A DNA stretch of 44,157 bases from Planctomycetota bacterium (GTDB lineage Bacteria; Planctomycetota; GCA-002687715; DRQF01): NCBI GenBank assembly GCA_027001995.1, contig JALTLO010000182.1, positions 1 to 44,157 on the forward strand. Reading direction: 5' to 3'. Position numbers and translations under genes: made by a program. This document shows positions 1 through 31,657 of the stretch, piece by piece. Under the pieces are notes generated by a model. That model saw only the letters and a program-made list of their open reading frames with translations. It ran no database searches and had not been told where the DNA came from. Every line of letters starts with the position of its first letter. The stretch's first letter is position 1.

Positions 1-621
1 GAAGAGAACAATGCCTTTTCTGGGGCTGATACAGACATCAATGCCCAGTTTGCTGCCTTGGAAGTCTCCTACGATTTCGATTGGTTGCGCCTGCGGGTCT
101 ACGGCATGTACGCTTCGGGTGACGACAATCCCCGGGATGGTAAGGCAGAGGCTTTTGATGCCATTGTTGATGCTCCCAACTTTGCCGGCGGTGAGTTCTC
201 TTATTTCAACCGTCAGGAAGTGAGGCTCTTGGGAGTTGGTCTGACTCCAAGGTTTAGTTTCTTGCCTGACCTGACGGCTTCCAAGTTCGAAGGTCAGTCA
301 AACTTTGTGAACCCAGGTTTGTTCCTCTTTGGAGCGGCGGTGGATGCAGAATTAACACCCACCTGGCGTGCTCAACTTGGTTTTAACTATCTTCGGTTTG
401 CCCAAACTGAGACCCTGGAAACCTATTTGCAACTCGAGAGTGTCGAGAATGAAATCGGATGGGAAGTCTTCTTCGGTTCCACTTATCGTCCTTTATTGAC
501 AAATAATATTATTATTACTGCTGGTGCTTCAGCTCTGTTTCCCGGTGACGGCATGCAGAAACTCTACCAGCAGAACAAGGTGCTCTACTCTGTGTTCCTT
601 GATGTGACCATCACGTATTGA
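1..621 (+). CDS. Outer-membrane beta-barrel (porin-like) protein, 5'-truncated by the window edge
   Basis: Frame 1 is open from base 1 (EENNAFSGADTDINAQFAALEVSYDF...). Alternating amphipathic strands, a YASGD motif and a C-terminal beta-signal ending in an aromatic residue (VFLDVTITY). Confidence 0.75.
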   Translation, partial: EENNAFSGADTDINAQFAALEVSYDFDWLRLRVYGMYASGDDNPRDGKAEAFDAIVDAPNFAGGEFSYFNRQEVRLLGVGLTPRFSFLPDLTASKFEGQSNFVNPGLFLFGAAVDAELTPTWRAQLGFNYLRFAQTETLETYLQLESVENEIGWEVFFGSTYRPLLTNNIIITAGASALFPGDGMQKLYQQNKVLYSVFLDVTITY

Positions 622-653
622 GCGGATCCATGAACCCAGTCGAATCTGAACAT

Positions 654-3600
654 ATGAAAAGTCGCAGTCACTTTGGCCTGGCGGTCATCGGCAGCACGAC
701 ATCCCTATTGGCTCTGTTGATTGTTGTCGTGAGCTGTAGTCACGATCCAAGACCAGCCTACCAAGCGTCCCAAGAACCTGAGCTTGGTATGGGGAACGTC
801 AATGGCGTCACCGTTGACTTCGCTGATCAATCTGCAAATCCGGGCCTGGCAGAAAAACGGAGCGCAGGGTGCATGAAGTGTCATGAGAATTCTCATGACC
901 CCCACGGTTCCAATAAGGTCTCTATGTCTTGCGTTGATTGCCACGGTGGCAACGGCTTGGCTGATACCATTGAGGAAGCTCATCCGACGGCCAATCACCC
1001 GGAGCTCTTTCCCACATCTGCCAATCAAGAACGCACATACATGGATTTCATGTATGAGAACTGGGACTTCGTACGTTTTGTCAATCCAGGGGACCTGCGG
1101 GTAGCCCACGTCACCTGTTCTCCATGTCACGCCGAAGAGGTGATGAACGTGAAGAAGTCCGTGATGACCCACGTGGCTCATTTCTGGGGAACTGCGGCCT
1201 ACTCCAACGGGATCGTCTCCCAAAAACGAAGTATTTTTGGCGAGAGCTACAGTCCTCAAGGTCGGGCCCAAGCCATCAAAACCTTTGTTCGCACCGACAC
1301 AGGCTGGCGTGACTTGACCAAGGAAGAGTCGGTCAAGCACAGCATTTCACCTTTGGTGGCTCCTTTGCCTCACTGGGAGATCACTCAGGTTGGTAATATT
1401 TTCCGGGTGTTTGAGCAAGGTAGCCGTTTGGGTGGCCCAGCTCTGGGCTTCAACGGTTTGCCCATTCCCGTTCCCGGAATTCCTGACAAATTGGAAGATC
1501 CAGGGCGGCCCAACAACCGTTTGTCTGACCGTGGTTTGGGAACATCAAATCGTGTGGATCTTCCGGTTCTGAACATTCACAAGAGTCGTCTGAACGATCC
1601 TCATTTGAGTTTCTTGGGGACGAACGACCAGCCTGGGGATTACCGTTCAAGTGGTTGCACGGCTTGCCACGTTGTTTATGCCAATGACCGTGACCCCTTC
1701 CATTCCGGGCCCTACGCCAAGTTTGGCAACATGGGCAAGACCGATCCGAAGAATCCAGATCCCACCATCAGTACCAAGGAATCGGGGCATCCTATTGCCC
1801 ACAAGTTCACCAAGGCGATTCCTTCCAGTAACTGCATGGTTTGCCATATGCATCAGCCCAACTCTTTTGTGAATTCCTATTATGGTTTCACCATGTGGGT
1901 TTATGAGACTGACGGTGATCCGTTTTGGCCCAAAGTTCAGAAAGAGCTTAGCCACGAAGAATTCGTCCAAGGTGTCCTGAAGAACCCAGAGGAAGCTGCG
2001 GTTCGTGGTAATTGGATCGACAACGAATTCCTGAAAGACTCAGCTCCGCGCATCAATCCTAACGCCAAGCATACCCAGTTCGCCGACTATCATGGCCACG
2101 GTTGGATGTTCCGCGCTGCTTTCAAGATGGACCGTAAGGGTAATCTCTTGGACAAGGACGGGAACATCGTTGACTACGATGACCCCAACAAATTTCAGGG
2201 TGCAGTTCCTATCGTTGGCTCAAGCAACAAATACAACACGGCGTTGCCGGGGCATGCTAAGCGGGCGGTCCACTTGAAGGATATCCATGCAGAGAAGGGC
2301 ATGCATTGCGTTGACTGTCATTTCCGCAATGACTCTCATGGGGACGGCAACGTCTACCATGAGTATCAAGCTCAGGTTGAGATCAAGTGTGAAGACTGCC
2401 ACGGCACCACTACCGAGTATGCCACTTTGAAACCGTCTGGTCCTGCCAGCAAGTCCCCCAACCATCGGGCCCTTGACTTGAAGGATATCCGAACGGCCTA
2501 TGACAAACCGCTCTTTGAAATCGGCAAAGACAAAGACGGCTTTCCTCAGTTGATCCAAAATTCCATGGTCAATAAAGGGCAGTCTTGGGTGGTGAGCCAA
2601 GTCAAGAACGCTGTGAACCCTGGCTTCTCTGGTTTCAACGAAAAGGCGTCATACGCCAAGACCATCCAAAAAGACAATATCAAATGGGGCGAAGTCGGTG
2701 CCGATCACGACAAACTGGCTCACAATCCCCAAGGCATGGAGTGTTACGCTTGTCATACGTCTTGGGTAACTGCTTGCTTTGGTTGCCATTTGCCTACCCG
2801 GGCCAACATGAAGACACCCATGCGTCACTTCGATAAGAAGGAATTACGCAACTACGGGACGTACAATCCTCAGGTTGTGCGTGACGCAGAATTTGCCCTG
2901 GGTGTGTCGGGCAACGTCAAAGGCGGAACGATCGCCCCTGTGCGGAGCAGCTCTGCTGTCTTGATTTCGTCGATGGACTCGCAGCGTCGCCAGCTCTACG
3001 AGCAGGTGCCGACCATCGCCTCAAACGGAATGTCAAGCCAAGTGTTCAACACGCACTTTCCCCACACTGTGCGGACGACAGAAACCCGGAAATGCGACGA
3101 ATGCCACGTTTCCGAAGCCAATGACAATAATGCTTGGTTGGCTACGACCTACCTCTTAGGAAGTAATACCGTTGGTTTCATGGGAGTGAATGCCTGGGTG
3201 GGCTGCGGCCCAGAGGGCCTCTATTCTGTCCAGGTGACTGAATATGAAGAGCCACAGGCGATTATCGGCTCGAACCTACACAAGCTGGCTTGGCCCAAGT
3301 ATTACAAGGAGTTTGAGGCCCGAGGTCGCAAGCTACATAAGGACAACCACCATGGAGCCACGGATGTTCGCACCATCCAGTTGCGTGGGGAGTATGTCTA
3401 CACGGCCCAAGGCCGAGGAGGCTTCCGGGTCTACGATGTGGCCAATGTTCACAATAAGGACTTTTCCGAGAAAATCGTGACAGCACCGGTGTCACCCTTG
3501 GGACAGGATACTCACGTGTCGACCTCCTTTGCTACATCTATGGCCTTGCCCTTCAACAATCACATCAGCATGAGCCGTGTTTATCGGCCCGAAAATGAAG

Positions 3601-4535
3601 AGACGTTTGTTGAATACAAAGGCAAGAAGCAAAACATGCACGAGATGTATCGTTATGCTTATGTCAGTGACCGCTATGATGGTCTGGTTGTGATTGACAT
3701 CGATTCCCTTACGGACGGGAACCCCAGCAACAACTTCATCGAGAAGGTTGTCTCCTTCAATCCCAAGGGAATTCTCAATGGCGCTGAAAACCTCGCTGTT
3801 GCTGGAACTACAGTCTATATCTGTTGCGATGCTGGTTTAGTGGCTGTTGATATTGACGACCCCAGGGCACCGAAGATTAAGAAAGTGTTGCCTTGGCCGA
3901 AGGGCGTGAAAACACGTTACGTCGCCATCCAGTTCCGCTACGCCTTTGTTTGCGATAGCGAAGGGCTCACCGTGGTGGATATCACGGTCCCTGAAGAGAT
4001 GCACCCGGTGGAGAAGTTGGAGATTCCAGACGCAAGGAGCATCTACGTTGCTAAAGATTATGGTTACGTGGCTGGGGGCAAAGACGGCTTGATCATTGTT
4101 GATTTGGAAACTCCAACAAACCCCAAGGTCCAGCAGGTCTGGAGTGCCGGGGGTAAGATCAACGATCTTTACGATGTCAAAGTCGCCATGACTTATGATT
4201 CCACCTATGCTTACTTAGCTGATGGTAAGAATGGTCTTCGGGTTGTGCAGTTGGTGTCCGCTGGGGATGGCAAGCGAAGCCCTTACGGTTTCTCGCCACC
4301 ACCAATCCCGAAGTTGATTTCTGAGTTCAAGACAGACGGAAGCTGCATTTGTGTATCTAAGGCTTTGGATCGAGATCGAGCTGTGGATGAAAGCGGCAAT
4401 CAGGTGACGCTGTTTGGCCGTATTGGTGGGCGCCCGATGAATCTCAAAGAGCGCCAAAAGCTCTATATGAAGAATGGTAAGCTCTACCGGGTCACAAATG
4501 AGCCAAAGAACGGGCCTGTAACCCCACGGAAATAG
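654..4535 (+). CDS. Decaheme c-type cytochrome lipoprotein with C-terminal LVIVD-repeat (beta-propeller-like) region
   Basis: 10 CxxCH motifs (CMKCH, CVDCH, CSPCH, CTACH, CMVCH, CVDCH, CEDCH, CYACH, CFGCH, CDECH). Signal ends in a lipobox-like VVVS-C. About 7 LVIVD-type repeats (e.g. YAYVSDRYDGLVVIDI, YGYVAGGKDGLIIVDL). Start is ATG 654 or 630. Confidence 0.85.
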   Translation: MKSRSHFGLAVIGSTTSLLALLIVVVSCSHDPRPAYQASQEPELGMGNVNGVTVDFADQSANPGLAEKRSAGCMKCHENSHDPHGSNKVSMSCVDCHGGNGLADTIEEAHPTANHPELFPTSANQERTYMDFMYENWDFVRFVNPGDLRVAHVTCSPCHAEEVMNVKKSVMTHVAHFWGTAAYSNGIVSQKRSIFGESYSPQGRAQAIKTFVRTDTGWRDLTKEESVKHSISPLVAPLPHWEITQVGNIFRVFEQGSRLGGPALGFNGLPIPVPGIPDKLEDPGRPNNRLSDRGLGTSNRVDLPVLNIHKSRLNDPHLSFLGTNDQPGDYRSSGCTACHVVYANDRDPFHSGPYAKFGNMGKTDPKNPDPTISTKESGHPIAHKFTKAIPSSNCMVCHMHQPNSFVNSYYGFTMWVYETDGDPFWPKVQKELSHEEFVQGVLKNPEEAAVRGNWIDNEFLKDSAPRINPNAKHTQFADYHGHGWMFRAAFKMDRKGNLLDKDGNIVDYDDPNKFQGAVPIVGSSNKYNTALPGHAKRAVHLKDIHAEKGMHCVDCHFRNDSHGDGNVYHEYQAQVEIKCEDCHGTTTEYATLKPSGPASKSPNHRALDLKDIRTAYDKPLFEIGKDKDGFPQLIQNSMVNKGQSWVVSQVKNAVNPGFSGFNEKASYAKTIQKDNIKWGEVGADHDKLAHNPQGMECYACHTSWVTACFGCHLPTRANMKTPMRHFDKKELRNYGTYNPQVVRDAEFALGVSGNVKGGTIAPVRSSSAVLISSMDSQRRQLYEQVPTIASNGMSSQVFNTHFPHTVRTTETRKCDECHVSEANDNNAWLATTYLLGSNTVGFMGVNAWVGCGPEGLYSVQVTEYEEPQAIIGSNLHKLAWPKYYKEFEARGRKLHKDNHHGATDVRTIQLRGEYVYTAQGRGGFRVYDVANVHNKDFSEKIVTAPVSPLGQDTHVSTSFATSMALPFNNHISMSRVYRPENEETFVEYKGKKQNMHEMYRYAYVSDRYDGLVVIDIDSLTDGNPSNNFIEKVVSFNPKGILNGAENLAVAGTTVYICCDAGLVAVDIDDPRAPKIKKVLPWPKGVKTRYVAIQFRYAFVCDSEGLTVVDITVPEEMHPVEKLEIPDARSIYVAKDYGYVAGGKDGLIIVDLETPTNPKVQQVWSAGGKINDLYDVKVAMTYDSTYAYLADGKNGLRVVQLVSAGDGKRSPYGFSPPPIPKLISEFKTDGSCICVSKALDRDRAVDESGNQVTLFGRIGGRPMNLKERQKLYMKNGKLYRVTNEPKNGPVTPRK

Positions 4536-4604
4536 GCTTCTTCGAGAGTTTCGCCCTGGATGAGGTGGAAACCTCTCCGGTGAGCAGGAAATGAAGGGCT
4601 CAAT

Positions 4605-4649
4605 GCGGCGAGCTCGGCTTTACAAGTCGGGCTCGCCGCTGTATTTATT
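4605..4649 (+). terminator. Putative intrinsic terminator or stabilising hairpin
   Basis: GCGGCGAGCTCGGCTT-TAC-AAGTCGGGCTCGCCGC forms a 16-bp stem (two G-U pairs) followed by TGTATTTATT. Confidence 0.5.
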
Positions 4650-4683
4650 AGGAATCAGTGAATTCTCAGGAGACTCTTATCCC

Positions 4684-5748
4684 ATGTCTGAACTTGCTTT
4701 TCGCATTTCGGAGCCAGGCAAGCCCACGAAAGAAGTTCCCATCGAAGTAGGCCTCAGTTTGGGCCGAAGTGATGAGAACACCGTGCCTATCGTTGACAGC
4801 AAGATCTCGGGCCGCCACGCCCATGTCATTGAAAAGGATGGCAAACTGGTCATTGAAGACTTGGGAAGTTCGAATCACACCCACGTCTTAGGGGGAGCGT
4901 CTCTCAAGGGGGGGGAAAGCCACCCCTTATCCGTCGGAACCATGATCCAATTGGGCGATACCAAATTGATCGTTGTCGCGGCGGGTAAGTCTGGCGGTGC
5001 CGATAAGACTGTGGCTGCCCAAATGATCACCCTGGACGGTGGGGCCGATGACGAGCCTGGGGGGGCGGCGGCCAACTTGGCCATGTTGGCGGCGTTTAAG
5101 GCTGCACGGGGCCGCATTGTCGTGGCTAATGAGGCGTTTCGGCAAATTGCCGATGTTGACAAGATCGAATACATCGTTGGACGCAATGGTGAGTCGACCC
5201 ATCTTTCCATCGACCACAAGGCTGTTTCCAGCAGTCACGCTGCCATTCGTTTCGAGAACAAGCGGTTTACCATTGAGGACTTGGGGAGCGCCAATGGCAC
5301 ATTCGTTGATGGCGAAAAGCTCGTTCCCAATGACAAGAAACCTCTGAAGTCAGAATCTCACATTCGATTTGGTTCAATCGACACGCTTTTCGTTGTGACT
5401 TCTGATTCATCTGGCTCGACCCCAGATTCAAAGCGCTATCGCAATGCAGTGGAAGTCTTGATTCACGAGGGTACGCTCCCGGCTTCTCAGCGAGACGAAG
5501 CGATTCGGGAGGCCCAAGCTAGTCACCATCATCCCGGTGAGGTTCTTCTCCAAAAGGGACTACTCACAGTGGAAGAGTGGCTTTCGGCCTACAAGAAAGC
5601 GGAGTTTTTTGTTGCCCCCCGTGCCCTCGGGGGAGGATCTCAGGGAGGTGGCGGCAGCAAGAAATTCTTGATCGCCTTAGTGATTCTTTTGCTGGCTGTC
5701 ATTGTCGTCTTGGTGGTGAAACCAGGGTTGTTAGGGCTGGGGGGCTAA
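4684..5748 (+). CDS. Tandem FHA-domain protein with degenerate MshEN-like segment and C-terminal membrane anchor
   Basis: FHA1 LGRS...SGRHA...DLGSSNHT; FHA2 VGRN...SSSHA...DLGSANGT. HPGEVLLQKGLLTVEE segment and a C-terminal hydrophobic helix. SD AGGAGA at 4668-4673 supports ATG 4684. Confidence 0.85.
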   Translation: MSELAFRISEPGKPTKEVPIEVGLSLGRSDENTVPIVDSKISGRHAHVIEKDGKLVIEDLGSSNHTHVLGGASLKGGESHPLSVGTMIQLGDTKLIVVAAGKSGGADKTVAAQMITLDGGADDEPGGAAANLAMLAAFKAARGRIVVANEAFRQIADVDKIEYIVGRNGESTHLSIDHKAVSSSHAAIRFENKRFTIEDLGSANGTFVDGEKLVPNDKKPLKSESHIRFGSIDTLFVVTSDSSGSTPDSKRYRNAVEVLIHEGTLPASQRDEAIREAQASHHHPGEVLLQKGLLTVEEWLSAYKKAEFFVAPRALGGGSQGGGGSKKFLIALVILLLAVIVVLVVKPGLLGLGG

Positions 5749-5752
5749 CCTG

Positions 5753-7903
5753 ATGTCGAAATTGCTTCTGCTCGCGACCAGCACTCTTGTGACCTTCTTC
5801 TTGGGGTTGACGCTCTGGGATCATGCTGCTCCGGTCGCCTTATCTGTTGCCCCGAAATTGGCAGAGGCTGATGTCTTTCCTCATGGGAAGCACGTTCACG
5901 GGGAATGGCTGACGTCTCCAGAGGTGAAACGGGATTGCCGCGGTTGCCATGACTTCGATGAGTCCGACGGTGTCAGGCAGCCGGAACAAACCTGCGTTCT
6001 TTGTCACTACGCTTTCGGCCCAGGGCTCGAGAGCCTCAAGGTGGAAGGGTCCATCGAGGCCCTGCCTTCTTCGATTGAAGCCTTTGCCCATGGTGATCAT
6101 GGGAAACTCGATTGCAAAGCATGTCACGCTCCACCGGAAAGTTCTCTCCGAGGAATCGGTGGCCCGATTGTTCCGGATCAGATGTTTATCCCCCAGGGTT
6201 TGGGCTCTTGCGTCAAGTGTCACGACCCCAGTGCCAAGAATCGCCCTGCTAATCGTTCCAAGGACGACGTGGGGTTTCAGGCAGTCATCAATGAAAAGCC
6301 TCGGATGAAGGCTAACCCGGATGCCGTCTTTAAGCACAGCGAACATTTGTCGCCAACTGAAATCAACCGTCAGCAAAACTGCAACACTTGTCACGATAGC
6401 CTGGCGGCTGCCGGCCCAAACATGGGGGATGCTGTTTTCAACAGTGCCTCATGTGGGGAGTGCCATCAGGACGAAAGCGGAGTGAAACTTGAATTCAGAA
6501 CGGAAGTGAGGAAGTACACGAGCCCATCTGATCTCGCCTTCTATCACTCTGACCACGTGACCCCAGAAGCCATGGGTAAGAGTAAGGAACTCAAGGCGAA
6601 AGCCTGCTTCGCTTGTCACGACAAGAATGAAGGCAAAGAAGGCAGGGGTGTGAGTGATTATCCTCTAAGAAGAGGTTTCGACAAGTATCAACAGTGTTCG
6701 ATTTGTCATGCCGAGTCGGATGTTAAATGGCGGGGTTTTGATCATAAGTCTTCCCCCCAAGATGTCACATGGCGCATCCCTGATCATGGGGCCCTGAGCA
6801 AGCAAGGCAACAATTGCACAGCTTGTCACGTCTTTGGGCAAGAATCAGCGATGAAAACCACAAGGCCCATGGGTGAGGTGGGCCGGAGTCGCCCTTCGGT
6901 ATTTGAGATCGTGGAACAAGCTCATCCTCATATTACCGGTTCCAACGACACGAAGAACAAAGATTGCAAGTCTTGTCACATTGCCGAAGCGAAGGTGATT
7001 CCATCGAGAATCAAGGAGAAACGTTTCGCTCATGACGCCCATCTGGGGGCTTCTCCAACGGCTGAGGACTGTCAGACTTGTCATGTCTCGCCCCAGGAGG
7101 GGACGAAAAACCTGATGCAACTCGCCGGTCATGAGGGCATGCAGTTGTCCTATTCTGAAGCTTCCTGCAATGAATGCCACCAGGGGGTCGCTTTGGTCAA
7201 GGCAGGGACGTATACCAAGCAGGTCTCCAAGAATGTTCTCTTTGATCACAGTGATCATGTCACTGCCAAGTCAAGCCCTACGGTTTGCAATGATTGTCAT
7301 GTTCGAGGGGATGGGGGCGAATTTCGAGAGTTCGTTTTTCAGGATGGGGTGAAAGACTGTAGTCAATGCCATGACCATGGAGAGAAGAACTTCAAGAACA
7401 CAGGCAACAAGAATCAAGCCTATGTGAATGGCTGCGTCGCTTGCCACGAAGTTCATGTGAAAGGCATTCCAGCGCTCAACTCAGAGCTCCCAGCCAGTCG
7501 GGTTGATATCCATGCTATCAATGGTTCCCAATTCCATCCTTTGCCTTCGAAGATGGCTTGTTCCAAGTGTCACCGCCCAGGTTTCACTCAGGATAAATTG
7601 GTGGAAAGTCAATTTGACGTGGTGAAGTCGGAATTTACCAACTACCAACGTGGGCAAGGGAAAGGAACTTCCTTCCATTCTAAGCACAAGGACATGGGAG
7701 AAGCGCTGCCTCAGGAATGCTACGCTTGTCACTGGAATAATTTCACCAAACTTCAGACTACAGTGGTAAGAGTGGCCGATGAGTTGGGCAAGGCGCGCTC
7801 CATTGGCAGGTCTCAGCCCCATAGCAATCCCAAGAAGGCGAGTGTCGTTCGTGGGGCCTTAGGAAACATGATTAAGGGCTATCCAGGAAGACTGTCCAAA
7901 TGA
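5753..7903 (+). CDS. Multiheme cytochrome c (17 CxxCH), cytochrome c3/c7-like modules, exported
   Basis: N-terminal signal/anchor, 17 CxxCH motifs, and recurring FxHxxH distal-ligand motifs (FPHGKH, FAHGDH, FKHSEH, FYHSDH, FAHDAH, FDHSDH). Confidence 0.9.
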   Translation: MSKLLLLATSTLVTFFLGLTLWDHAAPVALSVAPKLAEADVFPHGKHVHGEWLTSPEVKRDCRGCHDFDESDGVRQPEQTCVLCHYAFGPGLESLKVEGSIEALPSSIEAFAHGDHGKLDCKACHAPPESSLRGIGGPIVPDQMFIPQGLGSCVKCHDPSAKNRPANRSKDDVGFQAVINEKPRMKANPDAVFKHSEHLSPTEINRQQNCNTCHDSLAAAGPNMGDAVFNSASCGECHQDESGVKLEFRTEVRKYTSPSDLAFYHSDHVTPEAMGKSKELKAKACFACHDKNEGKEGRGVSDYPLRRGFDKYQQCSICHAESDVKWRGFDHKSSPQDVTWRIPDHGALSKQGNNCTACHVFGQESAMKTTRPMGEVGRSRPSVFEIVEQAHPHITGSNDTKNKDCKSCHIAEAKVIPSRIKEKRFAHDAHLGASPTAEDCQTCHVSPQEGTKNLMQLAGHEGMQLSYSEASCNECHQGVALVKAGTYTKQVSKNVLFDHSDHVTAKSSPTVCNDCHVRGDGGEFREFVFQDGVKDCSQCHDHGEKNFKNTGNKNQAYVNGCVACHEVHVKGIPALNSELPASRVDIHAINGSQFHPLPSKMACSKCHRPGFTQDKLVESQFDVVKSEFTNYQRGQGKGTSFHSKHKDMGEALPQECYACHWNNFTKLQTTVVRVADELGKARSIGRSQPHSNPKKASVVRGALGNMIKGYPGRLSK

Positions 7904-9120
7904 ACCTGAGTCTATTCAAGTCCGTTCACGGTCCGATTGCGCTGGTGATCTGCGTAGCATCGACAGCTTGGCTTATCGCCATTGGCGCTACTGCCGGCAC
8001 GCGGGCAGGATCGAATCCAACTTATGTTTTGTGGAGTGGCTGGATTGCCGCTGCCCTGATGCTTGTGGCCATGCTTTACTGTGCACGCAAGTACATGCAT
8101 AAGCTCAAATACTCCCCAGAGCTCAAACTGAAGGTCCCCATTTCTTCCTTAGAAGCTTCCGAAGCTGGGTTGAATGATGTGCGGAGAAGAGCCGCCCGAG
8201 GCGACTTTAGTTCCGTGGCAGAAGTCAACAAAGCAGCTCAAAGAGTGGTGATCGATGAAGGTGTGAGTCAAGTCATTGCTGTCTCGACTCGAGCTGGTAA
8301 TCCTGCTGCCGGTGAGTCTCAGTATGTTATCGAAGTGAAACCACCTGAGAAATTCGGCCGCATGACCAAATGGCTTCATGCTCACATTTATTATGGTTTG
8401 GCTTCTGGGGTTTTGGTCTGGCTTCATGGTGGATTTGCCATGACCCATCCCATGGGCATTCTTCTCAATGTCTTGACTGCTCTTGTCATCATTACGGGCA
8501 TCATTGGGATTTTTCTCTTTGCTTATGGCCCCTCTTGGATGACTCGTCACGAGAAGGATTTGAACTTTGAAGAGAACTTCGTGCTCGATGCCAGCCTGAA
8601 GGACAAAATCCGTGACCATTTGGTTGCTGTTAAGAAAACTCTGCCCGATGAAAAAGAGATGGTCGCGGCTTTGGAGAAAGGCTTTGCCAGTGGTAATCAC
8701 GATCGGCTGACGACGGTTTTTAAGTCGTGGAAAGACGCGAAGACAGCCATCGTTGACCTTGCCAACGGCGTTGTTGCTGCGGTGTCTGAAGCTAAAGAAG
8801 AGGCTGTCCCGGCCGCTGCATTTGCATCTTTAAGCAATTCTCCTGTACTGAAGTCAGAGATGGAAAAGGCAGCCCAAGAAGAAGATCCCAAGAAACGTTT
8901 GGCAGGGGTGAAAAAGGTCTTGGCGAACTACACCAAAGAAAACCAATTGGTGGAAGATGCTGTTGTCCTTCTGGGGCAACGCAATGGAACCCGGGCTGGT
9001 TTGGCCCAACTGACTCGCATTAAATTCTTCATGAATGTTTGGCGCGCCATTCACATTCCTGCTTCTTTGGCGCTCTGTGGTCTCATTGTTCTTCACGTTC
9101 TTTCGGTCTGGTGGTACTGA
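7900..9120 (+). CDS. Integral membrane protein, putative diheme cytochrome b (ferric-reductase-like TM domain)
   Basis: About 5 TM helices and two H-x13-H pairs (HIYYGLASGVLVWLH; HIPASLALCGLIVLH). ATGA overlap with the upstream cytochrome gene. Confidence 0.7.
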   Translation: MNLSLFKSVHGPIALVICVASTAWLIAIGATAGTRAGSNPTYVLWSGWIAAALMLVAMLYCARKYMHKLKYSPELKLKVPISSLEASEAGLNDVRRRAARGDFSSVAEVNKAAQRVVIDEGVSQVIAVSTRAGNPAAGESQYVIEVKPPEKFGRMTKWLHAHIYYGLASGVLVWLHGGFAMTHPMGILLNVLTALVIITGIIGIFLFAYGPSWMTRHEKDLNFEENFVLDASLKDKIRDHLVAVKKTLPDEKEMVAALEKGFASGNHDRLTTVFKSWKDAKTAIVDLANGVVAAVSEAKEEAVPAAAFASLSNSPVLKSEMEKAAQEEDPKKRLAGVKKVLANYTKENQLVEDAVVLLGQRNGTRAGLAQLTRIKFFMNVWRAIHIPASLALCGLIVLHVLSVWWY

Positions 9121-9123
9121 TCT

Positions 9124-10605
9124 ATGACTGACGATTTTGATGTACTTGGACTTCTTCAGTCCCTCCCGCTGTTTGAAAAAGTGAAGCCGGGTGCGCTGAA
9201 GAAGATGTATGTGGACCCGGAGAAGGCTAAACCTGGGCAACAAACAGGGCTCCAGGATAAGCACGTTCAGTTCATTGTCGCCAATCCTGGGGAAGTGATC
9301 GTGCGCCAAGGAGAGCTAGACACAGAGTTCTATATTGTCATTGAAGGCATCGCTAGTGCTTACCGCTCCGAAGATGGAGGGAAGTCAACTCTCTTGGGGA
9401 GTTACGGTCAAAACGACTTCTTTGGCGAGATGTCAGCGATTTCTCATCAAGCTCGATCGGCGACGGTGAAAGCTGACGCCACTTGCACATTGATGCGGAT
9501 GGATGTCACTTTGTTTCAGCAGCTCTTCGGCGACAAAACGTCGAGTTTCGCCAAGATCATTGATGAGCGCTATCGTGAGAGAGCTTTGGCTTTTCACTTG
9601 ATGACTGCCCCGATCTTCAAAGAGACGTCTCAGGAAAAACTGAAACTTGTGGCAGATAGGGCAGAGCTGGTGTCCTACGAGAAAGACGCCGTCATCACCG
9701 TTGCAACGGATCCTGCTGATGCCGTGTTCTTGGTTCGAAGCGGCATCATCAAGCGCAGCACAACGGGCTCGATGGGGGAAGAGAGAGTCCATGACTATCT
9801 CTGCGACAACTCGTCTTTTGGTGAGCAAGCTCTTGCTGGCGGGGAACCGACTTGGGGTTACGATGGCGTCGCTATGAGCCGTGTTGACTTGGTGCGGATG
9901 CCCTGCAAGCTGTTTCAGGAAGTTTTCACCAGCGAAGAAGACAAACACAAGCTGACTCGCCAGGTTAGCCTGCTCTTGCAAGAAGAGCAGGGCATCAAGA
10001 CCTCACTCTCTGACGACGATCGCAATGAACTCTTGGTTGGCCAAGAGACTATCAAGGGCACTGAAGCCTTGGTTATCGACCTGAAGAAGTGCACACGATG
10101 CAATGCCTGCGTCGAGAGCTGTGTGTCTGTTCACGAAGATGGCATCCCCCGTCTGTCAAAGCGTGGTATTCGTATGGGAGACTTAACTCTCTCGTCCGCT
10201 TGCTACAACTGTAAGATTCCAGAATGCATGTTGTCGTGTAATTTTGGCGCAATCAGAAGAGACAAAGACGGGCAGATTCATATCGTTGTGGACAATTGCA
10301 CTGGTTGCAGTAAGTGCGAATCTGGTTGTCCCTATGGCGTTATTCGCATGGCTCATGTCTTGACACCTGCGGAACAATCAGCTCAACAGCCTTCAATTTG
10401 GGAGAGCATTCCTTTGCTTAACAAGTTGATCAAACCCAAGCCGGTGGAGGTCATGGCAGATAGTCCCAAAGGGAAGCCTATGGCTAAGGCGATTAAGTGT
10501 GATCTTTGTGCTGGATTGCCGTTTGAGGCCTGTGTCTATAATTGCCCATGTGATGCGATTGCCAGGCGGTCCCCTGAGGCCATCAGTGGCATTGGCAACA
10601 GATAA
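9124..10605 (+). CDS. Tandem cyclic-nucleotide-binding domains fused to a 4x[4Fe-4S] ferredoxin (NrfC/DmsB-like)
   Basis: cNMP1 PGEVIVRQGE...FFGEMSAISHQARSATVKA; cNMP2 SFGEQAL. Cys groups CTRCNACVESC, CYNCKIPECMLSC, CTGCSKCESGCP and CDLCAGLPFEACVYNCP. No signal peptide. Confidence 0.9.
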   Translation: MTDDFDVLGLLQSLPLFEKVKPGALKKMYVDPEKAKPGQQTGLQDKHVQFIVANPGEVIVRQGELDTEFYIVIEGIASAYRSEDGGKSTLLGSYGQNDFFGEMSAISHQARSATVKADATCTLMRMDVTLFQQLFGDKTSSFAKIIDERYRERALAFHLMTAPIFKETSQEKLKLVADRAELVSYEKDAVITVATDPADAVFLVRSGIIKRSTTGSMGEERVHDYLCDNSSFGEQALAGGEPTWGYDGVAMSRVDLVRMPCKLFQEVFTSEEDKHKLTRQVSLLLQEEQGIKTSLSDDDRNELLVGQETIKGTEALVIDLKKCTRCNACVESCVSVHEDGIPRLSKRGIRMGDLTLSSACYNCKIPECMLSCNFGAIRRDKDGQIHIVVDNCTGCSKCESGCPYGVIRMAHVLTPAEQSAQQPSIWESIPLLNKLIKPKPVEVMADSPKGKPMAKAIKCDLCAGLPFEACVYNCPCDAIARRSPEAISGIGNR

Positions 10606-10627
10606 GTTCGATTGAAGAGGTAGTCCT

Positions 10628-12574
10628 GTGGCCAAGTTCACTTTCAAAGTTGGTAAAGATGTAGAGGTGAGAGAGGGAGATCGGGTTTCTATCGGAACAC
10701 GTTCGACGGCATCGTTTACCTTGGCCGACCCTTTGGCAGCGGATTTTCACTGCGACATTCTCGTTCGGGGTAGCGAGTTCGTCATCATGGACCGAGGTGG
10801 CTCCTTGGGCACCTTTGTTAACGGTGTGAGAGTCGTTGAAGCTCACCCCTTGAAGGACGGTGATCAGATCGTTTGCGCGGTTACCCGCTTGAAAGTCACA
10901 ATCAAGGGCGAAGAACTCCAAATAGAACAAGAGCGAGGTCGTTTCTACTACGACGACAAGAAAGATGGTCTCGACCTCTCTCGCCGGGAAGTGGCATTTG
11001 GACGCTTTCGGCCCGTAAGTGTGGGTAACTGGGTTGTCGTATTTGTCATGTTGATGTTGTTTCCCTTGTGCTACCTAGGAGCCACCAGCGATTTCCTTCT
11101 CGAACCGGGCGAAACCTGGCATGGCAACCAGAAGGCCTACCATGCAGCCATGGAAAATCTTGACGCTGACAATCAGGATTGCAACGCATGCCATGATGCA
11201 CTTTCAGGGACGCCGGCCACAAAGTGCATGAATTGTCATCAGGATGACATTGGCCCCAAGGACATGCACCCATTCCATGAATCCGCAGAAGATTGGGGTG
11301 AGACTTGCATCAAGTGTCACGTGGATCATCGTGGCACCCATGAGTTTGCTCTCATTGCGAAGCCAGCAAAGGAGACATGCGGAGACTGTCACGAGGTGGA
11401 CAAGAAGATGACCAAAAAACGGCCATCAACTATTCCCACCGTCGATGTGGCCTTGCTCTTTAATACATTCTCTCACGCCGATCATATGAACAAGGATGTC
11501 GCTGGCAGCAAGATTGCTTGTGATAGTTGCCACAAACAGTATGACTCCACCACGAAAGACGATGTCACCGAGGGCAATCGCCCTCGTGAATACCAGCCAG
11601 TGGCCTATGAAGCCTGCATGGGCTGCCATTCGGGAGCACAGACTGACATCAAGGATCTGTCTGGGACTTGGCACGGAACTGATGATGGTGGCAAGAAGTG
11701 CCTACAGTGCCATAGTGAACTAAATCAACAGGCTCTGACTCAGGTCGACTTTCAACAAGTCACTTTGGGTTATTCTTTGGTTGGGCGTTCCCACATCGAA
11801 GAAATGACATCCAAGGCCGCCGACGGTGGCCAAGAGTGTGCTGATTGCCATCGCCGAGAAGATCTCTTGAAGGGCGGAGCCGATTTCGCCCAAAGAGGAT
11901 TCGTACACAAGACCCACATTCTGGACCAGGACCCCAAGGACAGTGCCACGAAACTCCTTCTCTCGGGTAGCCTCACCGCACCAGCGAAAGGGCAATGTTC
12001 TTTCTGTCACGCAGACATGATGGAGACCAATTCCCTCAAAGGTGAGAGTCCTCATCATTACGCCAATCAGAGCTGTGCTACTTGTCATACCAGCGGTGGT
12101 GTCCGTCAAGATAATATGAGCCCCCCTGTTGCCAGCAAGCGCAACGATTTTCCGCACAAACTGCACATGAAGGTTGATGGGGGATGCTATGCCTGCCATG
12201 AATTCACTGGTTCTGATCCGAAGATGGACGTGGTAACACCGGCCCAAGTGAAGAGTTGTGTCGCTTGTCACAGTAGCCACCAGAATGTCGGCGGTCGTGA
12301 AGGCCATTGCGCGGATTGCCACAAAGGGGCAGAAGAAGGTCGTAAGAAAGATCCCGTCTATTCTCAGGAAGCAATCCTGTGGAATCGCCGGCCAGACGCG
12401 TCCTATAGCCACAATAGTCCGGGACATGTGGGGCTTACGAAAGCGGGCAAGTGTACGGACTGTCATGGTGAAGATATCTGGGAGACAAAGACTGTGGACG
12501 CCATCAAGATCCCAGTTGAAGACGACCCCAGGTGCCGTGATTGCCATTTGCGTGAACGTTTCCACTGGCGATAG
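10628..12574 (+). CDS. FHA-like domain + TM helix + multiheme cytochrome c (15 CxxCH)
   Basis: GTG start after GAGGT. N-terminal FHA fold (IGTR...FHCDI...GSLGTFVNG...LKDGDQI), TM WVVVFVMLMLFPLCYL, then 15 CxxCH motifs. Confidence 0.88.
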   Translation: MAKFTFKVGKDVEVREGDRVSIGTRSTASFTLADPLAADFHCDILVRGSEFVIMDRGGSLGTFVNGVRVVEAHPLKDGDQIVCAVTRLKVTIKGEELQIEQERGRFYYDDKKDGLDLSRREVAFGRFRPVSVGNWVVVFVMLMLFPLCYLGATSDFLLEPGETWHGNQKAYHAAMENLDADNQDCNACHDALSGTPATKCMNCHQDDIGPKDMHPFHESAEDWGETCIKCHVDHRGTHEFALIAKPAKETCGDCHEVDKKMTKKRPSTIPTVDVALLFNTFSHADHMNKDVAGSKIACDSCHKQYDSTTKDDVTEGNRPREYQPVAYEACMGCHSGAQTDIKDLSGTWHGTDDGGKKCLQCHSELNQQALTQVDFQQVTLGYSLVGRSHIEEMTSKAADGGQECADCHRREDLLKGGADFAQRGFVHKTHILDQDPKDSATKLLLSGSLTAPAKGQCSFCHADMMETNSLKGESPHHYANQSCATCHTSGGVRQDNMSPPVASKRNDFPHKLHMKVDGGCYACHEFTGSDPKMDVVTPAQVKSCVACHSSHQNVGGREGHCADCHKGAEEGRKKDPVYSQEAILWNRRPDASYSHNSPGHVGLTKAGKCTDCHGEDIWETKTVDAIKIPVEDDPRCRDCHLRERFHWR

Positions 12575-12613: not shown

Positions 12614-13300
12614 ATGAAGCCCGTGACATTCATATTCTTCGCCTGTCTTTTGCAGGGGGTCATCTTTGGCTCCCTTCAAGAGGAAGGCCGGGTTGATTCC
12701 AATGCCATACAGCAGGCTCGTGACAAAGTGTTGGCCCAAGGGGACTACCAAACGGAACTCCCCAATCGCTTGAGGGAATTCAAATCATCTGAATCTTCGT
12801 CTTCTGATTCATGGCTCCGCGATTTTGTTCCATCCATAGATCTTGTCATCCGAATTATTCTCGGGATCATTGCTGGTGTTGTTTTTGTCGCCTTCGTTCG
12901 TTTCGTTCTTGATCATGTTCAGGAGCGAAAACGTGACATGGGGAAGGAAGCTCGATCAGGGGCCATGCCCATCAAGGCCGGTGATTTTCAAATTGACCTG
13001 GGAGAAATTCGGGACTTGGCGGCGCGGGGTCACCACGGAGAGGCCATTCATCTACTCTTGTTGAAGACGGTGCAAGAATTATGTCGGCTCACGAATGTGG
13101 AGATCTCTCCGGCGAAAACGAGTCGTGAGATTACTCGTGAGATTCCTTTGGAGGATTCCCCTCAGGATGACTTGGAAGCTTTGGTGCTCACTACTGAGAT
13201 TTCCCATTTTGGCGAAGTCCCAGCAACAGCCGCTGACTTTGAGAGTTGTATGCGGCGGTTTGAGAGCTTTGTGACCAATCTGGGCGGGAAGATTTCATGA
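12614..13300 (+). CDS. DUF4129-like membrane protein
   Basis: Signal plus one TM. C-terminal AARGHHGEAIHLLL...AKTSREI...EISHFGE resembles DUF4129. First gene of the MoxR operon. Confidence 0.7.
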   Translation: MKPVTFIFFACLLQGVIFGSLQEEGRVDSNAIQQARDKVLAQGDYQTELPNRLREFKSSESSSSDSWLRDFVPSIDLVIRIILGIIAGVVFVAFVRFVLDHVQERKRDMGKEARSGAMPIKAGDFQIDLGEIRDLAARGHHGEAIHLLLLKTVQELCRLTNVEISPAKTSREITREIPLEDSPQDDLEALVLTTEISHFGEVPATAADFESCMRRFESFVTNLGGKIS

Positions 13301-14514
13301 CCCCCTCTGTGTTCAAGGCCCACGGAACAACAGCAGCAATTCTGGTGCTGGGAGCCTCATTCGTCTTTGCCCTCCTCATGCTTCTCTTCTCTGAGAACGA
13401 AGTTGAGCCTAACCCCAATACCAATGGCTACAGCAAGTCTTCTATTGGCCATGAGTTGCTCATCAACATGTTGGAGGAATTGGGTTATCAAGTCCGAATC
13501 AATCGCTTGACCGATCCGGGGTCGACGATTGCTGGAGACTTGGTCGTCTACGCGGAGCCCCACGCCGATTTCCTTCCGGATGGGGATGAACTGGCGAACG
13601 TTCTTGAGACTGCCGGTGCAGTCCTGTTGGTCTTACCCAAACGCCTCGGTGTAATCGATCCAGATGACCCTCAAAAAATCCTGAGAAGCTCAACAAACGT
13701 CAACGCACAGGAAGTCTTGAGCAAGTTCTTGATGAATGCTGAGGTCTGGCCCCCTGACGGTTCAGAGCTGAAGCCCATTTCGTTGACGCAGAACAGTTTC
13801 GGGAAAGTTCCCCAAGTGGCGGCGCTTCAGTTGATGGACGCGCCGTTCTTAGATGTCTTGATGAGGACGGATCAGGGGGTCTTTCTTGGACGTGATGGAG
13901 AGGCGTCAGGAAACCTATTTGTCCTTTCTGACCCAGATATTATAGCCACCCACGGCCTGATGCATGGGGACAATGCTGAGCTTGTGGTTACCATCATTGA
14001 CCATATCCTACCGGAAGGCGGCGCTATCGTTTTTGATGAATCAGCCCATGGGTTCGCCGTAAGCAAGTCCTTCTGGCAAGAGCTGTTTCGCTTTCCTTTG
14101 AGCCTGGCAACTCTGCACGGTTTCTTGGTTTTCTTGATCTTGATGTGGATCACTCTTGGGAGAATGGGACAAAAGCGGGTCTTGCCCCCGGCCATCCCAC
14201 CAGGAAAGAAATTCCTATTGGAAAACGTATCGAACCTCTTGACCTTCTATGGTCACCGGGGATTCCTCGGCCATAAGTACCTCAATAATTCCCTGCGGCG
14301 GACGGCGAATAAGTTGAGAATCAGTGGCAGTCAAGAAGAAATAGAAGTGCGCATGGAAGCTATGGCGCAACGAAGAAATCTTGCTTGGGAAGTCGAGCGA
14401 TGGCGCTCCGAGTTGGATGCAAACAAAGGCAGCACATCGCGAGGCGCTCGATCCGTTTTGGATGTTGCGCGAGAAATTCACCGATGGAATAGGGAGATGC
14501 TCAATGGATCTTGA
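13297..14514 (+). CDS. DUF4350-like membrane-anchored protein
   Basis: N-terminal [19 protein letters not shown]...DNA and IVFDESAHG motifs, second TM. ATGA coupling to the upstream gene. Confidence 0.7.
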
Positions 14515-15460
14515 CTTGATTCGAGAAACTGTGGGGCGAATTCGCCAGGAATACAGCAAAGTTGTTCTTGGTCAAGAGCGTGTGATCGACTTGTTGTTGA
14601 ATGCCATTCTGTGTCAGGGACATGTGCTTTTAGAAGGCGTTCCTGGTACGGCTAAGACGCTTATCGCTCAGACATTCGCCTCGAGCATGTCGCTATACTT
14701 CAATCGCATTCAGTTTACCCCAGATCTCATGCCCGGTGATGTTCTGGGGACGAACCTTTTCGACTTTCAGTCCAGTTCGTTTAGTTTGACCAAGGGGCCG
14801 GTTTTTACCGAGATTCTCTTGGCCGACGAGATCAATCGCACAGCACCCAAAACGCAATCAGCTCTCTTGCAGGCTATGCAAGAAAGGGAAGTGACGATTG
14901 ACGGTAAGCACCACAAGTTGAGCGAGACCTTCATGGTCATGGCAACCCAGAATCCTATCGAACAAGAGGGCACCTATCCTCTACCCGAAGCCCAGTTGGA
15001 TCGCTTCCTGTTTAAGGTGGGGCTCGACTATCCGAGTCGTGACCAAGAGCGTCAGATGGTTGCCCTTCACGGCAAGTCATCGTCCATGCCCGACATCAAA
15101 CGACTTGGAGTAGAGCCGGTTGTGGACAGCGATTTTATCGAACGGGCGCGCTTGGCCGTGGCGGATGTTGTTCTGTCATCGGAACTGATCGACTATATTG
15201 TGGATATCGTGAGGGCAACGCGGGATCATCAGGATCTCTTTTGTGGCTCGTCTCCGCGCTCTGCGAACATGTTGGCCAGCGCCGCCCGTGGTCGGGCTGT
15301 GCTGGAGGGCAGAGACTTCGTTATACCCGATGATGTTAAGCAACTGGCAGACCCTGCTCTTTCTCATCGCGTGGTCTTGGCGCCGTCCGCCGAGATCGAG
15401 GGACTGACGGCGTCATCGATCATCGACTCCATCTTGAATGAGGTTCCAGCACCTCGATGA
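14504..15460 (+). CDS. moxR: MoxR-family AAA+ ATPase
   Basis: [14 protein letters not shown] (Walker A), [20 protein letters not shown] (Walker B), [27 protein letters not shown] lies upstream of ATG 14504. Confidence 0.95.
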
Positions 15461-19465: not shown

Positions 19466-19653
19466 GATAGCTCTCCTTTGTGAGCGTCATGTGCTGCGTT
19501 CGTCTTTCATGATAACTGAATAATAATTCAGCGGAACCGAAGCAAAACTCTTGCGTGGTGCATTTACTCAATCGGGGCATCGCTGGTGTCGATGATTAGA
19601 TGGGCCTTAGTGAAGGCTCATAAATCAAAACTCCCCCGGTGTGGCACGACCTT

Positions 19654-31588: not shown

Positions 31589-31657
31589 GGGTAGAGACCA
31601 AAATACCGCCATTTTGTTTCTTGTCCAAGCAAATGTCAAAGGCTGGGTCTTCTGGGT

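Follow-up and report, generated by a model that had tools for sequence, protein, structure and literature searches.

Described systems and the locus under study

MtrCAB-type conduits take electrons from quinol dehydrogenases and, to our knowledge, possess neither a dihaem cytochrome b/Fe-S module nor cyclic-nucleotide-binding (cNMP) or FHA domains. The domain common to NADPH oxidases (NOX) and ferric reductases (Pfam: PF01794) holds two bis-histidine b-haems by H-x13-H-type pairs on transmembrane helices (TM) 3 and 5, and its electrons cross the membrane to an outside acceptor. Our analysis is concerned with a cluster of seven genes, referred to as genes 1 to 7, at the start of contig JALTLO010000182.1 (C182), which belongs to a Planctomycetota assembly of 5.2 Mb in 204 contigs (GCA_027001995.1, 92% complete) from an uncultured hydrothermal-vent organism. 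The window, i.e. the whole stretch of DNA analyzed, comprises positions 1-44,157 of this contig. We propose, with a probability of about 0.6, that the seven genes encode a single electron-transfer chain from the cytoplasm to the outer membrane, which would represent a Planctomycetota variant of the PCC4/ptd-type clusters.

Three sources describe related clusters. The PCC3 and PCC4 clusters, defined in silico, consist of a porin, multihaem cytochromes and, in subgroup II, an Fe-S protein; their inner-membrane protein has five TM helices with WX3HX13H on TM3 and TM5 and SGXXG on TM4, and the two-b-haem arrangement of ferric reductases and NOX is given there as well, with Zhang et al. 2013 as a source (He et al. 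2017, Front Microbiol 8:1584; PMC5566968). Planctomycetes and hydrothermal vents are among the carriers and habitats of PCC4 subgroup II (PMC5566968), and the same authors name Hyphomicrobium, Oceanospirillum and Zetaproteobacteria as carriers in culture. The ptdABCDEFG operon, whose function Elbon, Stewart and Glass call completely unknown, is said to occur in Planctomycetes metagenome-assembled genomes (MAGs) from saline habitats as well (bioRxiv 10.1101/2023.11.21.568154). Finally, a preprint on Ferrigenium straubiae states that the combination of FHA and multihaem domains, found in its NHC protein, was previously unreported (bioRxiv 10.64898/2026.01.22.701106). The original prediction knew of no characterized system of this type with cNMP-binding or FHA domains; the cluster has precedents all the same, as PCC3/PCC4 and ptd offer counterparts in silico and Ferrigenium an FHA-nonahaem cytochrome. 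Within the literature searched, on multihaem proteins with FHA or cNMP domains and on porin-cytochrome systems of Planctomycetota, no paper was found that treats the whole cluster as seen here; two candidates (PMC10732223 and bioRxiv 10.64898/2026.05.27.727921) do not describe it in their available text.

The likeness to PCC4 and ptd rests on published descriptions and motifs, not on alignment with their sequences. As in PCC4, porin and multihaem cytochrome genes are neighbors, a decahaem protein is encoded, and the Fe-S gene adjoins the membrane-protein gene, to which it is fused in some organisms; the membrane protein encoded by gene 5 has the motif set of the PCC3/PCC4 inner-membrane protein, with Thr replacing Ser on TM4 (TGIIG). 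However, the multihaem cytochromes of PCC4 bind 4, 5 and 10 haems and those encoded here 10, 17 and 15, large counts which recall PCC3; the Fe-S gene precedes the membrane-protein gene in PCC4 subgroup II and follows it here; the flavin 'redox gene' of PCC4 is missing; and the available text on PCC4 (PMC5566968) does not mention cNMP or FHA domains. A porin, a cNMP-binding 4Fe-4S protein (PtdE), a 'ferric reductase-like' transmembrane protein (PtdF) and a decahaem protein are common to the locus and to ptd, and gene 6 fits the pfam13247-type Fe-S protein that is encoded beside the membrane protein in both ptd and PCC4. Absent from the window cluster are the pentahaem beta-sandwich protein PtdA, the tetrahaem protein PtdD and the FAD/NAD(P) oxidoreductase PtdC. 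Conversely, no FHA protein is described for ptd in the available text, and its authors count two Fe-S clusters, whereas 16 invariant Cys indicate four here.

The NHC cluster of Ferrigenium has the same inner module as genes 5-7: an FHA domain, one TM helix and a periplasmic multihaem domain are united in one protein, next to which a [4Fe-4S] protein and a five-TM protein without an assigned family are encoded. The cluster differs in having nine haems where gene 7 has 15, and the available text describes no barrel, decahaem-propeller, 17-haem or FHA-FHA protein and does not mention a cNMP domain (bioRxiv 10.64898/2026.01.22.701106). The resemblance to MtrCAB of Shewanella and OmaB-OmbB-OmcB of Geobacter lies in a barrel gene beside multihaem genes, in an outer-membrane lipoprotein cytochrome, and, for MtrCAB, in above-cutoff matches of genes 4 and 7 to the Pfam model of MtrC/MtrF domain II/IV. 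At the family level the locus is distinct both from MtrCAB (DmsE/MtrA family TIGR03508: 36 and 43 bits against a cutoff of 192) and from the Hmc/Tmc/Dsr complexes (HmcA NF045713: 49 and 55 against 400 bits; DsrO: 29 against 200), and a search of the cluster with NCBIfam produced sub-threshold matches alone (ExtM/N/O, HmcA, DmsE family, NrfH). What is novel in comparison with the known clusters are the 15- and 17-haem cytochromes, the FHA-FHA-TM protein, an HbpS-like neighbor, the lack of a flavoprotein, the single surviving cNMP site, and the AlgE-like barrel modeled with 18 strands.

Organization and conservation of the cluster

Seven open reading frames (ORFs) on the + strand span positions 1-12574, with gaps or overlaps of -4 to +55 nt between neighbors, which agrees with the original prediction of seven co-oriented, mostly abutting genes. 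The predicted 42 c-haems are confirmed by the CxxCH counts and by their conservation (10 in gene 2, 17 in gene 4, 15 in gene 7); a motif scan of these genes for CxxxCH, CxxxxCH or CxxCK variants found none. Because the motifs of the cluster are conserved across orthologs, they are not due to chance. Likewise confirmed are the outer-membrane beta-barrel (gene 1), whose missing part is found on another contig and which is modeled with 18 strands; the 10-haem protein (gene 2), a putative lipoprotein with a lipobox-like VVSC beside its 10 CxxCH; the 17- and 15-haem exported cytochromes (genes 4 and 7); the membrane protein with two H-x13-H pairs (gene 5), invariant in 14/14 sequences; the cytoplasmic 4x[4Fe-4S] protein (gene 6) with its 16 invariant Cys; and, by Pfam, three FHA domains (two in gene 3, one in gene 7) and two cNMP_binding domains in gene 6.

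In the following, genomes are labeled G (G000 being the source assembly), loci L, contigs C and protein matches to a gene 5 profile P. Full-length homologs of gene 6 are not confined to the taxonomic family of the source organism but extend to a second family within its order and further. The order of genes 1 to 7 is kept in G005 and G013, and partial contigs of G021, G008 and G007 agree with it. A scan of species-representative genomes with gene 6 patterns yielded 24 loci with a long gene 6 match (L023-L046), 15 of them at 40% identity or more. All seven genes are collinear in five Planctomycetota MAGs (L024, L029, L034, L038, and L036 together with L031, two contigs of one MAG). Among the 15 closer loci, gene 7 follows gene 6 wherever the contig extends 3' of it (14/14) and gene 5 precedes it wherever the contig extends 5' (13/13). 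Barrel and gene 2 are present in five of the seven loci with at least about 9 kb of upstream sequence and absent from L032 and L035. By contrast, tblastn (E<=1e-6) detected none of genes 1-4 or 7 at the nine loci with 29-35% gene 6 identity, and the 33%-identical homolog in G032 (L017/L033) has no other cluster genes nearby. Alphaproteobacterial matches (L052, L054, L056, L059, L064) were discarded as unrelated; these are CRP-like proteins of about 230 aa without CxxCH-rich neighbors. L047, which also lacks such neighbors, was dropped as well.

Co-occurrence was counted in 301 evenly sampled genomes of the phylum; related genomes are not independent, so that these figures are counts and not a test. 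The gene 5 profile matches in 36 genomes (E<=1e-10) and gene 2 strongly in 43 (E<1e-100), with both present in 30, gene 5 only in six and gene 2 only in 13. Genes 2 and 5 are located on the same contig in 25 of the 30, no more than about 15 kb apart and often oppositely oriented. The genes stay clustered in rearranged versions as well. In the complete, single-contig genome G173, the barrel (-), genes 3-5-6-7 (+), gene 4 (-) and gene 2 (-) lie within 17 kb, while in G084 barrel and gene 2 (+) are followed by 5 kb of HEAT-repeat and other genes and then by genes 7-6-5-4 (-), without a match to gene 3. The barrel and gene 2, and genes 5, 6 and 7, form two fixed blocks which remain neighbors; in the window a hairpin separates them.

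Further evidence comes from natural fusions. P0138 (865 aa) consists of two cNMP domains and a Fer4 module followed by the gene 5 domain; P0164 (1110 aa) has the same order with an additional Pyr_redox domain at the front. In both proteins, five hydrophobic segments follow the Fe-S module, with H-x13-H on the third and the fifth. A Binatia MAG encodes, next to gene 6- and gene 5-like genes, an ORF of 1326 aa (L046:12589-16569, +) with three FHA domains, 10 CxxCH, a 4Fe-4S dicluster and Pyr_redox, a chain that, going by its domain content, needs at least two membrane crossings. Since these fusions join the Fe-S protein and the membrane protein, the two work as one unit, and transmembrane electron transfer is therefore supported; since they also carry the flavodomain, the cytoplasmic end in the relatives is an NAD(P)H-type flavoenzyme. 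An electron-transfer chain is the best reading of the cluster because its synteny is conserved across families and rearrangements and because natural fusions exist.

The inner-membrane module and the direction of flow

Gene 5 (7900..9120, +) encodes an inner-membrane protein of 406 aa with five TM helices and two cytoplasmic helical inserts. Its motifs are W158x3H162x13H176 on TM3, T199GIIG203 on TM4 and W381x3H385x13H399 on TM5; H162, H176, H385 and H399 are invariant in 14/14 sequences down to 36% identity, and at least two Hx13H motifs occur in 139 of 144 proteins of the family. In a library of 1.84 billion proteins, the gene 5 profile matches 1769 representatives at E<=1e-3; at E<=1e-10 their number falls to 421 and at E<=1e-30 to 82. 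Among distant family members, matches to Ferric_reduct (PF01794; 18 against 28 bits) and Ni_hydr_CYTB (up to 26 against 30 bits) stay below threshold, and the nearest Atlas cluster, 'putative Ferric reductase like transmembrane component' with a score of 0.90, is a lead only. Between TM4 and TM5, residues 223-366 (window 8566-8997) are modeled as a four-helix bundle whose best structural matches are HPt proteins (Z 9.1, below the trusted level); this insert is much shorter in other lineages.

Gene 6 (9124..10605, +) begins 3 nt after gene 5 and encodes a cytoplasmic protein of 493 aa, in which Pfam recognizes two tandem cNMP-binding domains (PF00027; 118.9 bits against a cutoff of 27.5) and, through Fer4_11, other Fer4 and 4Fe-4S dicluster families, a four-[4Fe-4S] ferredoxin module. 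All 16 Cys of the four cluster motifs are invariant in 7/7 sequences. The closest solved structures are the tandem cyclic-nucleotide-binding domains of PKA-R/PKG (E 1e-28) and, for the Fe-S module, ArrB (6cz7_B, E 1.6e-14).

According to the proposed model, the Fe-S protein would dock on the cytoplasmic face of gene 5, and two b-haems, one above the other, would be held by the pairs H162/H385 and H176/H399 in the manner of the ferric-reductase/NOX domain. The topology of the fusions is in accordance with this: the Fe-S module is cytoplasmic and placed before TM1, therefore TM3 and TM5 run from inside to outside, and as both do so, the His pairs H162/H385 and H176/H399 come to lie at matching depths. 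The likeness to NOX and ferric reductases includes the two H-x13-H pairs on TM3 and TM5 and, in P0164, a cytoplasmic reductant module on the same chain. Nevertheless, gene 5 has five TM helices instead of six and no match to PF01794; its relatives insert a four-cluster Fe-S wire and cNMP domains between flavin and haems; and the acceptor would be a multihaem cytochrome rather than O2 or an Fe(III) chelate.

Electrons would flow outward, from a cytoplasmic reductant to an outer acceptor, a direction favored by the relatives in which the cytoplasmic end is fused with an NAD(P)H flavoprotein. In the published model of PCC3 and PCC4 the flow is inward, and PCC4 carriers include Fe(II) oxidizers and hydrothermal-vent Planctomycetes (PMC5566968); transferred to our locus, this would mean that Fe(II), Mn(II) or another donor is oxidized at the outer end and that gene 5 serves as a quinone reductase. 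Expression of the NHC cluster in the Fe(II) oxidizer Ferrigenium is compatible with such an uptake (bioRxiv 10.64898/2026.01.22.701106), and so is the origin of the DNA: parts of the stretch are contained in six public DNA runs from two studies, among them hydrothermal-vent metagenomes, although the top run may be the source sample itself; no RNA run is among the public runs that contain it. We nonetheless regard inward flow as improbable. A cytoplasmic four-cluster Fe-S protein always accompanies the membrane protein, and relatives have this Fe-S protein joined to an NAD(P)H-type flavodomain; both features point to a cytoplasmic redox partner and not to the quinone pool. Moreover, Fe(II) could reduce NAD(P)+ or ferredoxin only uphill, and the cluster gives no sign of the energy input required.

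The periplasmic cytochromes

On the periplasmic side, the outer b-haem of the proposed chain would exchange electrons with the membrane-anchored gene 7 protein. Gene 7 (10628..12574, +) encodes 648 aa with an N-terminal cytoplasmic FHA domain (44.1 bits), one TM helix at about residues 127-154, and a periplasmic 15-haem domain, whose 15 CxxCH are all invariant in 12/12 orthologs. Besides FHA, the protein matches cytochrome families, the MtrC/MtrF domain II/IV model mentioned above, and a YscD-type Pfam model.

The gene 4 protein, with which the periplasmic c-haems would number 32, would extend the wire across the periplasm. Encoded at 5753..7903 (+), it is an exported cytochrome of 716 aa with an N-terminal signal or anchor and 17 haem sites; its above-cutoff Pfam matches are Cytochrome_C7, the MtrC/MtrF II-IV domain and Cytochrom_CIII, and its orthologs in syntenic loci include one with 18 haems (L077). 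With 42 aa per haem in gene 4 and about 33 in gene 7, the haem density of both appears wire-like from the sequence; the value for MtrA is about 33 (PMC5566968).

The FHA-FHA protein and the hairpin

A 16-bp GC-rich hairpin followed by the U-tract UGUAUUUAUU is located at 4605..4639 (+), between gene 2 and the likely start of gene 3. The region 4536-4690 folds with -64.5 kcal/mol (z -4.47), and none of 200 shuffled sequences folds as well. By its sequence, the element resembles a terminator or attenuator, and it would set genes 1-2, as an outer-membrane unit, apart from genes 3-7 as an inner one.

Gene 3 (4591..5748, +) probably starts at M32 (nt 4684), which is invariant in the ortholog alignment, and encodes a cytoplasmic protein with two FHA domains (109.8 bits), a small helical domain, a Gly-rich linker and a C-terminal TM anchor (residues 358-376). 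The helical domain had been predicted to be MshEN-like, an assignment that we could not reproduce: PF05157 (MshEN/T2SSE_N) has no match at E<=10 in this domain, in its G005 ortholog or in a longer paralog upstream of the cluster, although with so short a domain a remote likeness may escape such a search. The phosphothreonine pocket of FHA domains is made up of Gly-Arg, Ser-x-x-His and Asn-Gly. In FHA2 the residues G-R, S-x-x-H and S-x-N-G-T are invariant in 8/8 sequences, in FHA1 G-R, N and T, with SGRH also present. Gene 3 thus combines the HMM match (PF00498) with the pocket residues of a phosphothreonine-type FHA protein, and because the pocket is kept, a reading of phosphothreonine by gene 3 is plausible.

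The outer-membrane side

The chain would end at the decahaem-propeller protein of gene 2, beside the 18-strand barrel of gene 1. Only the C-terminal 206 aa of the barrel are encoded in the window (1..621, +), as an ORF open at its 5' end at the contig start; the N-terminal ~390 aa are located on contig C94 of the same assembly (C94:1-1323, -). In a tblastn search, residues 40-394 of the 597-aa G005 ortholog align with C94:1107-1 and residues 392-597 with C182:1-618. Because the ortholog extends across both, the starts of C94 and C182 adjoin each other, and the genome contains the barrel gene in full. The fragment has a sub-threshold match to Alginate_exp (PF13372; 16.4 bits, cutoff 25.2), the full-length ortholog has none, and a sequence search of solved structures found no relative. 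From a 26-sequence alignment with the G005 ortholog as first row, AlphaFold2 produced a model with 18 long strands (pLDDT 70.3), for which Foldseek ranks AlgE first (E 3e-17, TM-score 0.7 normalized to AlgE), followed by OprD/Occ and other channels with 16-18 strands. As a comparison of models, the likeness to AlgE concerns the fold alone and does not indicate the substrate. Homologs of the barrel number at least 2098 at E<=1e-5 among 8000 candidates; all are annotated as 'hypothetical', and the named members are mostly from Planctomycetota.

The barrel gene overlaps gene 2 by 4 nt, and the two are adjacent in 9/9 loci where both were found. Gene 2 (618..4535, +), whose true start is likely the ATG at 654, encodes an exported decahaem c-type cytochrome of 1305 aa with a C-terminal LVIVD beta-propeller region (PF08309; 76.8 bits) and sub-threshold matches to ExtM/N/O. 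The lipobox-like VVSC, as read from the sequence, comprises residues 37-40 with Cys40. Exactly 10 CxxCH are present in 110 of the 120 best homologs. No other part of the system is as well conserved as gene 2 (57-72% identity within the order): of 8000 candidates scored, 7704 match at E<=1e-20, with more than 50% identity in KSB1 and Calditrichaeota.

The joining of the two contigs makes the upstream DNA accessible: C94 contains genes for an HbpS-like protein, an FHA-FHA-TM paralog, an unknown 425-aa ORF, a LolA-like protein and a TPR protein. The first, divergent from the barrel gene, encodes an exported protein of 640 aa with an HbpS-like C-terminus (PF03928; C94:1617-3539, +, identical to L074:1617-3539). 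It adjoins the barrel in five of six loci with enough flank (G000, G005, G013, G173 and G084, but not G284) and does so in three different arrangements, and is therefore probably an eighth component of the system. HbpS is known as the partner of a redox-stress sensor in Streptomyces. The paralog of gene 3 (C94:3615-5351, -, in L074; about 2290 nt upstream of the barrel gene) is longer, with 578 aa arranged as FHA, low-complexity linker, FHA, helical domain and TM anchor; it is found both in the source genome and in G005 (also L021:5898-7484, -).

Weighing the proposed chain

A number of observations weigh against the chain as we propose it, and we bring them together here with the alternative explanations to which they lend themselves. 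The first concerns the outer end. MtrB, MtoB and PioB have 24-32 transmembrane regions (PMC5566968), whereas the ortholog model of the barrel has 18 strands and, as modeled, is too narrow to sheathe a multihaem protein in the manner of MtrB. As a consequence, contact with the cell exterior is unsupported and gene 2 may face the periplasm; with a barrel that is AlgE/OprD-like and not an MtrB-like sheath, an outer end of the MtrCAB type is doubtful. The cytoplasm-to-surface wire of the original prediction hence stands as an electron-transfer chain, on the strength of synteny and fusions, while its surface end is in question.

This leads to a second possible explanation, to which we give some credence, although the odds are against it: the cluster could encode a periplasmic redox enzyme, in which the barrel would admit some small solute, for instance a chelate, a metal ion or a species of nitrogen or sulfur, gene 2 would be the catalytic end facing the periplasm, and the multihaem proteins would link it to the inner-membrane dihaem/Fe-S module. 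The barrel matches AlgE (E 3e-17) and the OprD/Occ substrate channels but not MtrB. Gene 2 carries a large non-haem LVIVD propeller, and the figure of about 80 aa per haem in its haem region suits an enzyme better than a wire; a lipobox-like signal is present in just 43 of 120 homologs, counted with a rough pattern; and more than 50% identity across phyla is what one would expect of an enzyme. A role in the nitrogen cycle has been raised for ptd by Elbon et al. (bioRxiv 10.1101/2023.11.21.568154). Yet no catalytic motif or substrate could be identified, and the sequence search of solved structures found no relative of gene 2. The inner chain is identical under both explanations, which differ at the outer end alone.

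As to the inner module, gene 5 is predicted to bind two b-type haems on the basis of motifs. It belongs to no Pfam family, and the sequence search of structures revealed no solved relative. For its model (pLDDT 81), Foldseek finds no match in the PDB at E<=0.001, and structural alignment returns generic helical bundles only, at Z<=9.1, below the level trusted for helical proteins. Pfam detects no flavoprotein in the window cluster, and a tblastn search of the source genome (92% complete) in which the P0164 flavodomain served as query returned no hit at E<1e-5. The suggestion that a flavin subunit may lie upstream of the window failed: the 10 kb of C94 contain neither a flavoprotein nor a cyclase, with the same picture in G005, and in the relatives G005, G013 and G173 the upstream DNA harbors an HbpS-like lipoprotein and the FHA-FHA-TM paralog but no flavoprotein. 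Moreover, because 13 of 43 genomes with gene 2 lack gene 5 and six of 36 with gene 5 lack a strong gene 2 match, the outer and inner modules can occur apart. Finally, within the literature searched we found no experimental characterization of any member.

The signaling sites give a mixed picture. The phosphate-binding cassette of cNMP domains follows the motif Gly-Glu ... Arg-[ST]-Ala. In gene 6, site A is canonical (FGEMSAISHQARSAT), whereas site B (FGEQAL...YDGVAMS) lacks the Arg, so that the motif is present at one of two sites. We tabulated the cassettes of 24 sequences of the gene 6 family (L031 was excluded as incomplete). Site A is canonical (FGEM...R-S-A-T) in the window and five other members of its family, and both sites are canonical in the distant L039-L041, L043 and L044 and in P0164. 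From this distribution, cNMP binding is probably ancestral to the gene 6 family, with one site surviving here. On the other hand, site A is lost in 10 of 17 Planctomycetota sequences (the Arg is absent from L028-L030, L032, L034, L035, L037, L038 and L075, and L033 reads RWE), and site B is without Arg in every Planctomycetota sequence tabulated. The FHA pocket of gene 7 is degenerate as well (AADFH and SLGT): Arg and His are kept, but the phosphate-binding Ser is replaced by Ala and Asn by Leu. Its distant relative L078 has canonical FHA residues. To judge from these substitutions, the FHA domain of gene 7 may be a scaffold, as in YscD-type domains. The source genome encodes two class III nucleotide cyclases, one of which (PF00211, 109.6 bits; G000:C50:14078-14983) adjoins an ORF with a cNMP-binding domain.

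Within the proposed chain, a modulating or scaffolding role toward the inner module would fall to the intact cNMP site of gene 6 and to the FHA domains of gene 3, which are canonical. A stronger version of this idea is a wire gated by second messengers, in which cAMP or cGMP at the intact gene 6 site and phosphothreonine docking of gene 3 would switch the electron flow through the NOX-like dihaem b/four-cluster module into a 42-haem chain reaching the outer membrane. We consider this version speculative and rather unlikely. The original prediction had likewise assumed gating by cyclic nucleotides and Thr phosphorylation, and the sequence bears this out only in part: site A and the FHA pockets of gene 3 are intact, while site B and the FHA domain of gene 7 are degenerate. 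If the gated wire existed, cell signaling would directly control a respiratory-type conduit at the protein level.

The same domains could be taken to suggest that the haem chain is a redox sensor, which would report the periplasmic or extracellular redox state to the FHA and cNMP domains without bulk electron flow. Three FHA and two cNMP domains in one cluster, the HbpS-like gene beside the barrel in 5/6 loci, and the presence of three Ser/Thr kinases, a GGDEF response regulator and an EAL-HDOD protein elsewhere in the window would fit. Such a sensor is nevertheless very improbable in our view, as 42 c-haems, two b-haems and four Fe-S clusters far exceed what known sensors need, the fusions with an NAD(P)H flavodomain imply turnover, and the signaling residues are the least conserved part of the system.

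Genes downstream of the cluster

At small distances after gene 7, positions 12614-18658 (+) hold genes for DUF4129, DUF4350, a MoxR AAA ATPase, DUF58, a SpoIIM-like and an RDD protein. Membership of the DUF4129-DUF4350-MoxR-DUF58 genes in the system was considered and rejected: they follow gene 7 in the window's own family only (L024, L031) and not in L029. An EAL-HDOD protein and an HDOD-receiver-GGDEF diguanylate cyclase are encoded in this order at 19639-22819 (+). Further downstream (25878-34288, -), 13-22 kb from the cluster, there are three tandem paralogous Ser/Thr kinases with an FGE-sulfatase-like domain (962, 964 and 876 aa).

Implications

The system is abundant, with 1769 representative clusters in the membrane-protein family and thousands of members across phyla in the decahaem family. 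Its fusions propose a wiring that can be tested, from NAD(P)H and flavin over 4x[4Fe-4S] and two b-haems to c-haems; this would be an inner-membrane electron route that bypasses the quinone pool. To this the Planctomycetota version adds the largest cytochromes and the FHA proteins, and because it retains a cyclic-nucleotide site, it is suited to asking about the post-translational regulation of electron export. Should the narrow barrel turn out to conduct a substrate, the cluster may encode an unrecognized periplasmic redox enzyme in the cycling of metals, sulfur or nitrogen at vents and in oxygen-deficient waters.

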